Shown here: piece after piece, positions 35,016 to 37,684 of the stretch
Numbering within the stretch: position 1 is the first letter of the stretch
Layout of the letters: every line of letters begins with the position of its first letter
Source: Escherichia phage vB_EcoM_G2540-3
Direction: 5' to 3' (one strand)
Sequence record: MK327944.1
DNA: 64,000 nucleotides
Position numbers and translations under genes: made by a program
Notes under the pieces: model-generated
Databases searched by the model: none
Told to the model about the DNA's origin: nothing
What the model saw: the letters and a program-made list of their open reading frames with translations, nothing else

Positions 35016-35045
35016 ATAGTACCATGGAAGAACGGGGATGTAAAC
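35016..35045 (-). promoter_or_regulatory. T4-type early promoter cassette
   Basis: Same conserved cassette (GTTTACA-17-TACTATACAACTATCAACTAC). Confidence 0.55.
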
Positions 35046-35177
35046 CGTTTTGTGAAAAAATTTTTTAAAAAGTTTTAGGGAATTCTAGGGCAGGGAGGGG
35101 CAATTAAAAGATAGGATAATATATTATAAAGGGTATAAACTAAATGATGTCTAGAGAGGCCCGGAAAGGCCTAGATA

Positions 35178-35207
35178 CCAAAAAGCCCCAACCTTTCGGT
35201 CGGGGCT
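35178..35207 (-). terminator. Rho-independent terminator closing the tRNA/stable RNA unit
   Basis: Minus-strand RNA would form GCCCCGACC-GAAA-GGUUGGGGC hairpin followed by UUUUUGG. Confidence 0.5.
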
Positions 35208-35254
35208 AAGCCTTGCGGCAACCTTGTCGGGGTTCCACCTGCTAAGGCAAGTGT

Positions 35255-35410
35255 TTGTACGAAACGCCGGGATCGAACCCGGTTATTAAGTAGTTGACGC
35301 TACTCAATATTTTTAAAAGGCCATATCTCGACCATATCCGAACGTTCCGTCAAAAACGCTACTCGGCTTACGGCAAAGATATTTCCTCGAATCGATAATT
35401 CGGTGCGCCG
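35255..35410 (-). ncRNA. Possible small stable RNA(s) with tRNA-like 3' domain (comparable to T4 species 1/2 RNAs)
   Basis: No ORF; contains T-arm-like CCGGG-TTCGAT-CCCGG on minus strand but no canonical cloverleaf; located between tRNA-Arg and terminator. Confidence 0.3.
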
Positions 35411-35522
35411 TTTCTGCTGTGATATAAGGGGACATTAACAAAACATAAAGATTTATTAATGCCAGTCCTTAAACAGGGAACATCAGTCCGACGACTTACC
35501 GGTAGCGACCCGGTTTCTTGTC

Positions 35523-35598
35523 TGGTCGAGGCAGTAGGGATCGAACCTACGACCCAGGACTTAGAAGGTCCTTGCTCTTCCTTCTGAGCTATGCCCCG
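35523..35598 (-). tRNA. tRNA-Arg (anticodon UCU), CCA encoded
   Basis: Hand-folded cloverleaf: acceptor CGGGGCA/TGCCTCG, anticodon loop CTTCTAA, T-arm GTAGG-TTCGATC-CCTAC. Confidence 0.75.
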
Positions 35599-35601
35599 TA
35601 A

Positions 35602-36267
35602 TTAAAATTTCATTTTTCGACCTTTAAACCATCCTTCTGGAATTGGGTCAGTTTTCTTAATACGTTTAGAAACTTTTTCATCTAATGAATGAATCCACAT
35701 CATACCAAATTGGGAATTCTTTTCGCCCTGTTGGTGTTTATTTCTGGCGTGAGATTCTTTCATTTTATTAATAGTTTCATCTGAATGGGACTTACCCAAG
35801 AAAGATTTAGTATTTGAAAATTTCTCTCTATACTTAGGATTATCCCAAAGCTGTTTAAACCTTTCTGAACCCATTTTACGATATTTTTCTTTAAGGTCTG
35901 GGTCGTTCTCAAATCTGGTTTTAAAAGCGGCAACTCCTTTTAAGGAAGCTTCTTTCTTTTTATCCAAATATTCTTTAGTGTTTAAATGGTCCCAACCACC
36001 TTCACCACCTAATTTCAAATTATAAACGTCAGGGCGCTTTAAAAACTCTTCAGTCACAATATTCTTTTCTGACTCAAACATAGAGGTTTTATCGTCAAAG
36101 AACTCTAATATTTCTTTAGAGAAATTTTCTATACCATACTTGTCTTGGGCTCTTTTTAATAATTTACCAGAACCCATATATCCATCATCTAAATTTTCGG
36201 TAGAATGAGCGCCTATATAGATTTTATTATTAATTTTATTTGTTATTTTATAAGTGTAATGGAACAT
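35602..36267 (-). CDS. segB: GIY-YIG homing endonuclease SegB-like, 221 aa
   Basis: GIY-YIG N-terminus YTYKITNKINNKIYIGAH; 221 aa; embedded in the tRNA cluster as in T4. Confidence 0.75.
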   Translation of the reverse strand: MFHYTYKITNKINNKIYIGAHSTENLDDGYMGSGKLLKRAQDKYGIENFSKEILEFFDDKTSMFESEKNIVTEEFLKRPDVYNLKLGGEGGWDHLNTKEYLDKKKEASLKGVAAFKTRFENDPDLKEKYRKMGSERFKQLWDNPKYREKFSNTKSFLGKSHSDETINKMKESHARNKHQQGEKNSQFGMMWIHSLDEKVSKRIKKTDPIPEGWFKGRKMKF

Positions 36268-36308
36268 AAATATCTCCTATTTCTAAGAGTATTTATGTTC
36301 CCAAAATA

Positions 36309-36380
36309 TGGCCCTGGGTGGAATTGAACCACCATCTGGCGATTATGAGTCGCTTGCTTGAACCTTCCAGCTACAGGGCC
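36309..36380 (-). tRNA. tRNA-Ile (anticodon CAU, Ile2/Met-type)
   Basis: Acceptor GGCCCTG/CAGGGCC, anticodon loop CTCATAA, T-loop GGTTCAATTCC; no encoded CCA. Confidence 0.7.
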
Positions 36381-36386
36381 TTGATA

Positions 36387-36459
36387 TGCTGATTGACGGA
36401 ATCGAACCGCCGACGTCCTCATTACAAGTGAGGTGCTCTACCTACTGAGCTAAATCAGC
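36387..36459 (-). tRNA. tRNA-Thr (anticodon UGU)
   Basis: Acceptor GCTGATT/AATCAGC, anticodon stem-loop CCTCA-CTTGTAA-TGAGG, T-loop GGTTCGATTCC. Confidence 0.8.
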
Positions 36460-36466
36460 GAAATTA

Positions 36467-36553
36467 CGGAGGCGATAGGATTTGAACCTATGAGTCGCCG
36501 GAGCGACTGCCGGTTTTCAAGACCGGTGCATTAAACCACTCTGCCACGCCTCC
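36467..36553 (-). tRNA. tRNA-Ser (anticodon UGA), long variable arm
   Basis: Acceptor GGAGGCG/CGCCTCC, anticodon loop CTTGAAA, extended variable arm, T-loop GGTTCAAATCC. Confidence 0.8.
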
Positions 36554-36555
36554 AG

Positions 36556-36629
36556 TCTCCATACAAGGATTTGAACCTTGGACCTCCTGATCCCAAATCA
36601 GGCGCTCTACCAAACTGAGCTACACGGAG
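36556..36629 (-). tRNA. tRNA-Pro (anticodon UGG)
   Basis: Anticodon stem-loop CCTGA-TTTGGGA-TCAGG, T-arm CAAGG-TTCAAAT-CCTTG. Confidence 0.75.
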
Positions 36630-36641
36630 TAAATTAAATTT

Positions 36642-36713
<72 letters not shown>

Positions 36714-36719
36714 AAACTT

Positions 36720-36806
36720 TGGTACGAGAAGTGGGACTCGAACCCACAAGGAAATCATTCCGCAGCATTTTAAGTGCTGTGCCTTTACCAATTTGACCAT
36801 TCTCGC
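36720..36806 (-). tRNA. tRNA-Leu (anticodon UAA), long variable arm, CCA encoded
   Basis: Anticodon stem-loop CAGCA-CTTAAAA-TGCTG, T-arm GTGGG-TTCGAGT-CCCAC, 3' ACCA; G1-U72 wobble in acceptor stem. Confidence 0.8.
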
Positions 36807-36807
36807 G

Positions 36808-36880
36808 CTGGGAATAAAGGACTCGAACCTTTGCATCCTGGAATCAAAATCCAGTGCCTTACCAACTTGGCTAATTCCCA
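36808..36880 (-). tRNA. tRNA-Gln (anticodon UUG)
   Basis: Acceptor TGGGAAT/ATTCCCA, anticodon stem-loop CTGGA-TTTTGAT-TCCAG, T-arm AAAGG-TTCGAGT-CCTTT; separated from tRNA-Leu by 1 nt. Confidence 0.8.
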
Positions 36881-36977: not shown

Positions 36978-37271
36978 TTACCATTTATGATAATACATAT
37001 TTACGATGCATTCAAGACCCAAAGGATTCTTGAAAATATCATATTCAAGAGGACCTTTTTCTGTTTCAATAAAGAAATCAAAATTTACTGTATTAAATTT
37101 ACGGTCTTCCTTTACTAATTTAACTTGAGAAGATGAACGGTCAATGTAAACCTTTTCAACTTCAAAACATGTTAAAATGCCATAATCATCAATCAAGGCT
37201 TTAGCTGCTTCTTGATCATATTTATATCCATTTTCAATGGATGATACTTTCGCATAAAGAATCATTATCAA
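36978..37271 (-). CDS. Hypothetical protein, 97 aa
   Basis: ORF upstream of tRNA cluster. Confidence 0.4.
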   Translation of the reverse strand: MIMILYAKVSSIENGYKYDQEAAKALIDDYGILTCFEVEKVYIDRSSSQVKLVKEDRKFNTVNFDFFIETEKGPLEYDIFKNPLGLECIVNMYYHKW

Positions 37272-37684
37272 CCTTCATCAACAATAGTGTGCGTATTGGC
37301 ATTAACTATTTGCCACCAATCAAAGCGATTAAAACCATACATCGGTTTGTTTTCATTTTCTTTGATAATGTCACGGAGTTCATCTTCGGTAGCGGCTTTC
37401 GCTATTAAATCAGCATATCCACCACGAGGATAATAATTATCACCTGCAAAAAGTAAAAAGTTTGGTGTAATATTATTGAACTCTTCAAGAGTAATAACTG
37501 TTCCTGATGGTAGTTGAACAATCTCTACATATTTATATCCCAATTTTTGAGCAGCATCTACTGCTTCAAGCAAAGTATCATGAGCCCGTCCTATTTGGCA
37601 ATTTGGCTTTTTAGATGGATTAGCCTGATAATCCGCGTACACTTTATACATTCTATTCACCTTTAGAAATTTTATCCATAACAA
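37268..37684 (-). CDS. Hypothetical protein, 138 aa
   Basis: ORF with 4-nt overlap to downstream ORF. Confidence 0.4.
   Translation of the reverse strand: MLWIKFLKVNRMYKVYADYQANPSKKPNCQIGRAHDTLLEAVDAAQKLGYKYVEIVQLPSGTVITLEEFNNITPNFLLFAGDNYYPRGGYADLIAKAATEDELRDIIKENENKPMYGFNRFDWWQIVNANTHTIVDEG

Follow-up and report, generated by a model that had tools for sequence, protein, structure and literature searches.

Small stable RNAs rnaD and rnaC in the T4-like Escherichia phage vB_EcoM_G2540-3: comparative support for a tRNA-like fold in rnaC and a stem-closed frame in rnaD

Several RNAs that are not tRNAs carry the "top half" of one, an acceptor stem with its T arm, mounted on unrelated modules. 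The tRNA-like domain of tmRNA, the Y RNA YrlA and the tRNA-like structures of plant viruses are all built in this way, and all make use of the proteins that process or bind tRNA. Bacteriophage T4 has two small stable RNAs of its own, species 1 and species 2, known in sequence since the 1970s and annotated in its reference genome, and T4 deletions of the tRNA region are viable on laboratory hosts. In that reference (NC_000866), rnaD, the "small stable RNA, species 2" (119 nt), occupies positions 71053-71171, and rnaC, species 1 (139 nt), positions 70908-71046, downstream of tRNA-Arg. Both accumulate late in infection, as seen by northern blot and RNA-seq (PMC9697503), and their roles were stated to be unknown in 2010 (PMC3014915), in 2022 (PMC9697503) and once more in 2025 (PMC12685909). 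What are these two RNAs for? To this 50-year-old question, a fold supported by covariation brings concrete mutants and predictions. This article describes the rnaD/rnaC locus of a relative of T4, with particular attention paid to how the comparison of homologues has helped to define the architecture of each RNA.

The window, by which is meant the whole stretch of DNA analysed (64,000 nucleotides of Escherichia phage vB_EcoM_G2540-3, sequence record MK327944.1), is by its sequence a Tequatrovirus, or T4-like, genome. A BLAST search with positions 35100-35620 returned 767 phage records, and the T4-like origin of the window is drawn from the fact that almost all of them are T4-like phages of Escherichia, Shigella or Yersinia (Tequatrovirus), with 90-99% identity. 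Pairwise alignment with the annotated NC_000866, which also provided the window coordinates of the two genes, identifies the minus strand of 35150-35520 as the orthologues of T4 rnaD and rnaC, then a trailer, then a terminator. The two copies sit in the same position as in T4, the synteny is the same (tRNA-Arg, rnaD, rnaC, terminator, e.8), and strand and lengths match too. From 5′ to 3′ along the transcript, the parts are the following:

35523-35598, minus strand: tRNA-Arg(UCU), found by ARAGORN and by Rfam (tRNA, 63.9 bits), the first gene of the tRNA-Arg/rnaD/rnaC sub-cluster
35402-35521, minus strand: rnaD orthologue, 86% identical to T4
35396-35401, minus strand: spacer GAAUUA, the 6 nt between rnaD and rnaC, 5/6 identical to T4, predicted RNase P leader of rnaC
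35258-35395, minus strand: rnaC orthologue, 98.6% identical to T4 (137/139 aligned positions)
35208-35257, minus strand: 3′ trailer with three small hairpins by folding (35236-35253, 35220-35234 and 35210-35219), 94% identical to T4
35179-35207, minus strand: intrinsic terminator found by scanning, 100% identical to T4 and annotated as a terminator in related records
35145-35180, minus strand: extra hairpin by folding, just beyond the terminator and of doubtful significance, with 4 of the differences from T4 inside

The terminator has a 10-bp stem with seven G-C pairs and a GAAA loop (35184-35207), directly followed by UUUUU at 35179-35183; it has the G+C-rich hairpin and the U run of a Rho-independent terminator. 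The next promoter past the interval is sigma-70-like and lies at 35016-35044 on the minus strand. Two further elements were considered and set aside. The hairpin at 35145-35180 takes in four of the differences from T4, hence is not conserved, and is probably without function; a plus-strand "terminator" called by a consensus scan at 35498-35514 turns out to be P1 of rnaD, seen from the opposite strand. On the other side of the locus, a minus-strand cluster of eight tRNA genes (35523-36880) is split by a SegB-like ORF that resembles a GIY-YIG homing endonuclease (35602-36267).

The original prediction, made from the sequence letters, had placed an ORF-free, structured interval with a minus-strand terminator downstream of tRNA-Arg, where T4 encodes species 1 and 2, and all of this was borne out. 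No ORF of at least 60 amino acids is present in 35150-35520, where the only two are mechanical ones of 34 and 42 amino acids. Folded against shuffled sequence, rnaC gives a z-score of -4.3, rnaD one of -2.5 and the 431-nt stretch as a whole one of -7.0, which argues for structure beyond chance. The original prediction had also stated that boundaries could not be set from sequence alone; here it was too cautious, for homology to T4 rnaD and rnaC sets them. As for the expressed noncoding RNA that it expected, the stable-RNA locus stands, but it makes up two RNAs and a structured trailer instead of one RNA. By analogy with T4, both RNAs are probably expressed in phage vB_EcoM_G2540-3. The rnaD/rnaC interval is kept across some 800 phage records, in some of which rnaC and rnaD are annotated. 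The locus is therefore real, though known before, and what the structural analysis adds to it is modest: an architecture backed by covariation, a spread over phage genera and a missing Rfam family. Neither rnaC nor rnaD gave a family in Rfam, at the gathering threshold or at E<=10.

Homologues of rnaC outside Tequatrovirus were recovered by distant BLAST and pattern scans in Kagamiyamavirus, Moonvirus, Karamvirus, Tegunavirus and Gelderlandvirus, as well as in Winklervirus, Mosugukvirus, Edwardsiella phage PEi20, Citrobacter phage Ursula and Marfavirus. The resulting comparative set contains 27 distinct sequences and spans at least 10 genera, T4-like and Marfa-like. Pattern scans of IMG/VR and metagenomes added few lineages, several GC-rich coding false positives being discarded, and the rnaC pattern was found in none of the genomes of 185,579 bacterial and archaeal species, taken one genome each. 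A covariance model, the kind of search that had been suggested as a check of the interval, was built on 17 homologues and finds exactly one match in the window (156 bits, E=1e-36). The window rnaC is made up of these elements:

35388-35394 with 35260-35266, minus strand: acceptor-like stem of 7 bp, supported by covariation
35318-35387, minus strand: long arm, with loop 1 UUGACG at 35348-35353
35310-35317, minus strand: conserved A-rich linker
35284-35309, minus strand: hairpin 2, with loop 2 CGUCAA at 35294-35299
35267-35282, minus strand: T arm CCGGG-UUCGAU-CCCGG, with a 5-bp stem supported by covariation
35255-35257, minus strand: invariant CAA just after rnaC

Over the 27 sequences, 89.4% of the cells in this 54-pair structure are standard pairs, a share that drops to 38-46% once the partners are shifted by 1-3 columns. 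Both sides have changed in 35 of the 54 pairs, and the observed covariation score was reached by none of 500 shuffles. The third pair of the acceptor-like stem goes from A-U to G-C, while that of the T stem is found as G-C, U-A, A-U or U-G. Two U.U mismatches interrupt the acceptor-like stem of most homologues; in phiR1-RT these are replaced by U-A and C-G, leaving a stem that is wholly Watson-Crick. The long arm, 68-69 nt on a three-pair AGG/CCU base, comes in two unrelated sequence types of constant length, and hairpin 2 is always 25-26 nt. Upstream of the acceptor-like stem, a U (35395, the first annotated base of rnaC) is found in 25 of the 27 homologues. At the other end, the tail has the form U-N-CAA, which is U-ACA-A in the window; CCA is not encoded, and U-CCA-A occurs only in Marfavirus.

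This comparison supports a reading of rnaC as a tRNA mimic, in which a 7-bp acceptor-like stem is stacked on a T arm and the 68-69-nt arm and the 25-26-nt hairpin take the place of the D and anticodon arms. The "tRNA-like 3′ domain" noticed earlier is the acceptor/T-arm half of rnaC, now supported by covariation, and the T-arm-like element CCGGG-UUCGAU-CCCGG that had drawn attention to it is indeed present at 35267-35282 on the minus strand. Like tRNA (RF00005), rnaC has a 7-bp acceptor-type stem and a 5-bp T stem, with the loop UUCGAAU in homologues; it likewise resides in tRNA arrays and is preceded by a U as in the usual substrates of RNase P. In Kagamiyamavirus, Karamvirus, Gelderlandvirus and Winklervirus it lies between two tRNA genes, with spacers of 2-9 nt. 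Unlike tRNA, it is about 140 nt long, has no D arm, anticodon arm or encoded CCA, and is missed by tRNA finders. Its resemblance to the domains of tmRNA, YrlA and plant viruses is one of concept, and no Rfam family resembles rnaC in sequence or by covariance model.

The two hairpin loops of rnaC are exact complements: loop 1, UUGACG (35348-35353), is the reverse complement of loop 2, CGUCAA (35294-35299). Both change together in other lineages, to UUGAUG/CAUCAA in Tegunavirus and to UUGGCG/CGCCAA in Marfavirus, and the six-pair loop-loop helix is 99.4% paired in the alignment of 27 sequences, the independent compensatory events behind it being only two. Exact complementarity and joint change in two lineages indicate a predicted kissing interaction between the loops. 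Loop-loop kissing complexes are also known from HIV-1 TAR/TAR* and DIS and from ColE1 RNA I/RNA II; rnaC resembles them in its two fully complementary 6-nt hairpin loops, with all six pairs kept by compensation, but in contrast to these complexes both of its loops sit on one RNA. The loops might pair inside a single molecule or reciprocally between the two copies of a homodimer, which covariation cannot tell apart. Within one molecule, a kiss between the 26-bp arm and the 10-bp hairpin needs a sharp bend in the long arm; between two copies, the product would be a symmetric dimer, tRNA-like at both poles.

The window copy of rnaC departs from its relatives in one respect. Its T loop (35272-35277) has six bases, UUCGAU, one A being missing from the UUCGAAU that T4 rnaC shares with every other Tequatrovirus homologue in the alignment, and so it lacks the seven-base loop (UUCRANY) of a tRNA. 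A 7-base T loop of the UUCGNNY type is found in 24 of the 26 other homologues, and the remaining two have other 7-base loops. The deletion is shared by none of 714 other phage records, 104 of which, the deletion apart, match the 171-nt query at 99% identity or better, nor was it seen in the IMG/VR scan. The missing base may reflect an error of sequencing, or else a mutation of this strain by which the T loop is weakened and this copy perhaps impaired. The recognition core of the homing endonuclease SegB is GGTTCRANTCC (PMC2330249). The deletion disrupts this core even though the window encodes the SegB-like endonuclease at 35602-36267; in T4, by contrast, an intact motif exists alongside the SegB gene.

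rnaD is built differently. A common fold was found in 18 distinct homologues, and in the window its elements are located as follows:

35498-35514, minus strand: P1 hairpin
35489-35495 with 35403-35410, minus strand: P2 closing stem
35479-35484 with 35413-35418, minus strand: P3, in which UGUU/AGCA is extended by tandem G.A pairs
35474-35479, minus strand: invariant UCCCUG
about 35421-35473, minus strand: variable central hairpin

Stems P1-P3 are 85% paired, as against 25-48% with the partners slid, and seven pairs are doubly changed. In P1, an A-U pair becomes G-C in two sequences, and in Karamvirus and Jiaodavirus the strands of P3 have been swapped wholesale for other sequences with the pairing retained. 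The central hairpin exists in at least four unrelated versions; 13 of the 17 aligned differences between the window and T4 rnaD fall inside it. Taken together, these data support a predicted stem-closed RNA in which P1, P2, P3 and the invariant UCCCUG frame a hypervariable hairpin.

The position of rnaD is as regular as its frame. In the window it begins 2 nt past the CCA end of tRNA-Arg. The T4-like phages, phage W70 (Vequintavirinae) and one Karamvirus record have it after a tRNA CCA end; one Jiaodavirus record and one further Karamvirus record have it after a tRNA-like sequence ending in CCA. In every lineage seen, rnaD lies a few bases past a tRNA CCA end, or past an insertion there. In Escherichia phage W70 (L059:1191-1294), the rnaD frame is almost identical and directly 3′ of a tRNA. 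The rnaD-like RNAs of W70, Karamvirus and Jiaodavirus (L060-L062) have a short central hairpin with the conserved loop GAGUUCYCUCAACGAUAAC. In JS98-type phages, rnaD is joined straight to the same trailer and terminator without rnaC, from which it follows that rnaD and rnaC are separable modules; such fusions were seen in JS98 itself (L005:2497-2709) and in L040, L044, L045 and L047. As with rnaC, one genome from each of the 185,579 bacterial and archaeal species yielded no match to the rnaD pattern.

How would the two RNAs be released? According to the classical T4 literature, RNase III is needed in the trailer to make species 1, and Watson et al. are said to have found in 1984 that the T4 species 1 precursor self-cleaves in vitro. 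The location in a tRNA array and the tRNA-like top half lead us to propose that the host tRNA-processing machinery would excise rnaD and rnaC from a polycistronic tRNA transcript. RNase P would make the 5′ cut of rnaC, at the U that precedes its acceptor-like stem, and the remaining ends would be produced by endonucleolytic cuts and by 3′ exonuclease trimming back to the closing stems. The RNAs would then accumulate since their ends are buried in helices. Taken as one joint claim, the identity, architecture and processing route of the rnaC/rnaD interval seem to us very probable, a judgement that does not extend to the decoy function considered below. Two TATAAATA boxes, the T4 late-promoter consensus, are found on the minus strand upstream of the tRNA cluster, at 37219-37226 and 37530-37537; they fit the late accumulation of T4 rnaC and rnaD, though the window has no more of these boxes than chance would give.

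Function can be approached through four features: the tRNA-like top half, the covarying complementary loops, the constant arm lengths and the modular, tRNA-adjacent rnaD. Our tentative reading, which we hold to be possible and no more, is that rnaC may be a mimic or decoy that presents its acceptor/T-arm surface to a tRNA-binding protein of the host or the phage, and not an antisense regulator. This reading is suggested by the tRNA-specific features being the most conserved, by rnaC travelling with tRNA genes, and by its being dispensable in some phages, as would be expected of a host-conditional accessory; an antisense role is disfavoured because the conserved loops are occupied by each other. 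Any function of rnaC would have to be conditional, since JS98 types do without it and T4 phages deleted for the tRNA region are viable. For rnaD, a role that depends on the host is hinted at by a convergent SNP, which arose in every phage line evolved on the host ECOR34 (PMC12685909). A broader scheme can be drawn, in which rnaC founds an uncatalogued family of phage tRNA mimics, its arms locked by the six-bp kiss or paired in a symmetric dimer, and serves as decoy to a host enzyme that targets tRNA or to a defence nuclease, while rnaD would move separately, as a tRNA-linked RNA whose specificity hairpin can be exchanged; as a whole, this scheme is speculative and rather unlikely.

The main rival to a mimic function of rnaC, and a somewhat doubtful one in our view, sees in both RNAs no more than stable, structured leftovers of tRNA operon processing, by-products or end-caps acting in cis, which protect the 3′ end of the tRNA transcript and guide its processing but have no function in trans. 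It draws on the location of rnaD and rnaC at the 3′ end of the tRNA operon directly before the terminator, on the JS98-type phages that manage without rnaC, on the free replacement of the rnaD central hairpin, and on the decades that passed without a function being found (PMC3014915). An end-cap would nevertheless not be expected inside tRNA arrays, where rnaC is found in other genera, and the loops, A-rich linker and arm lengths of rnaC are conserved far past the needs of stability. The near identity of the rnaD frame between Tevenvirinae and Vequintavirinae also speaks against it, as does the convergent SNP selected on ECOR34 (PMC12685909).

Could the two RNAs be base-pairing regulators instead, reaching phage or host mRNA targets through conserved single-stranded loops? 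They have been called "small regulatory RNAs" (PMC9697503), the invariant UCCCUG of rnaD is predicted to be unpaired, and the variable hairpin of rnaD could serve as a changeable seed. For the two RNAs together this is improbable: the conserved loops of rnaC are mutually complementary and covary, hence are not free seeds, and as of 2010 T4 had yielded no characterised regulatory RNA that acts in trans (PMC3014915). Base pairing is less likely for rnaC but possible for rnaD, whose variable hairpin could be the specificity element. The mimic reading of rnaC, on the other hand, accommodates loops that are engaged with each other.

A highly improbable alternative takes rnaC for a true tRNA gene, or a decayed one, in line with the annotation in some GenBank records: a 94-nt tRNA-Lys(ttt) is annotated within rnaC in the record of phage G2133 (MK327928, L002:2158-2251). 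The rnaC of T4 and of the window does contain CUUUUAA, the same seven bases as the anticodon loop of E. coli tRNA-Lys, and an alternative acceptor pairing, ACGGAAC/GUUUCGU, is possible in both. Neither feature is conserved beyond Tequatrovirus, however, whereas it is the 5′-terminal acceptor stem that covaries, and the tRNA-Lys(ttt) was for this reason rejected. An acceptor stem and a T arm are there, as covarying 7-bp and 5-bp stems, but covariation backs another architecture where a tRNA would have a D arm and an anticodon arm with a 7-base loop, and the window rnaC ends in U-ACA-A and not in CCA. That a full cloverleaf is lacking had been noticed earlier, and ARAGORN and the Rfam tRNA model indeed return nothing there, even at E<=10. 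The strong conservation and covariation of rnaC across genera also argue against a pseudogene.

It is scarcely credible that the interval encodes one or two small proteins, although ORFs of 34 (plus strand) and 42 amino acids (minus strand) exist and automatic annotations put hypothetical proteins over the region. Neither ORF has a Shine-Dalgarno sequence before its TTG start codon, T4 carries a stop codon within the 42-aa frame, whose start falls in hypervariable rnaD sequence, and substitutions track base-pair compensation rather than codon structure; their coding potential was rejected on these grounds. Many GenBank records mislabel the rnaC/rnaD stretch as hypothetical proteins or tRNA, and both the "hypothetical protein" over rnaC/rnaD and the tRNA-Lys(ttt) inside rnaC look like annotation artefacts. 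Equally hard to credit is a hammerhead-like self-cleaving core in rnaD (CUGAUG ... GAAAC), for while CUGAUG and GAAAC do flank a hairpin, no hammerhead family of Rfam matches at E<=10, the essential A9 is a U, and these bases are the strands of P3, replaced with pairing kept in Karamvirus and Jiaodavirus, so that the candidate (CUGAUGA / GAAA) was rejected on covariation and Rfam.

Some observations concern the neighbourhood of the two RNAs. The tRNA-Arg(UCU) gene of the window (35523-35598) shares only 43% identity with T4 tRNA-Arg, against 86-100% for the sequences on either side, and looks like a swapped allele or cassette inside a conserved locus. Many relatives carry unannotated insertions of about 360 nt between tRNA-Arg and rnaD, and many also have a second unannotated insertion, of roughly 550 nt, apparently downstream of the terminator. 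In phage Aplg8 (L003), the insertions lie at 1134-1497 and at about 1845-2404.
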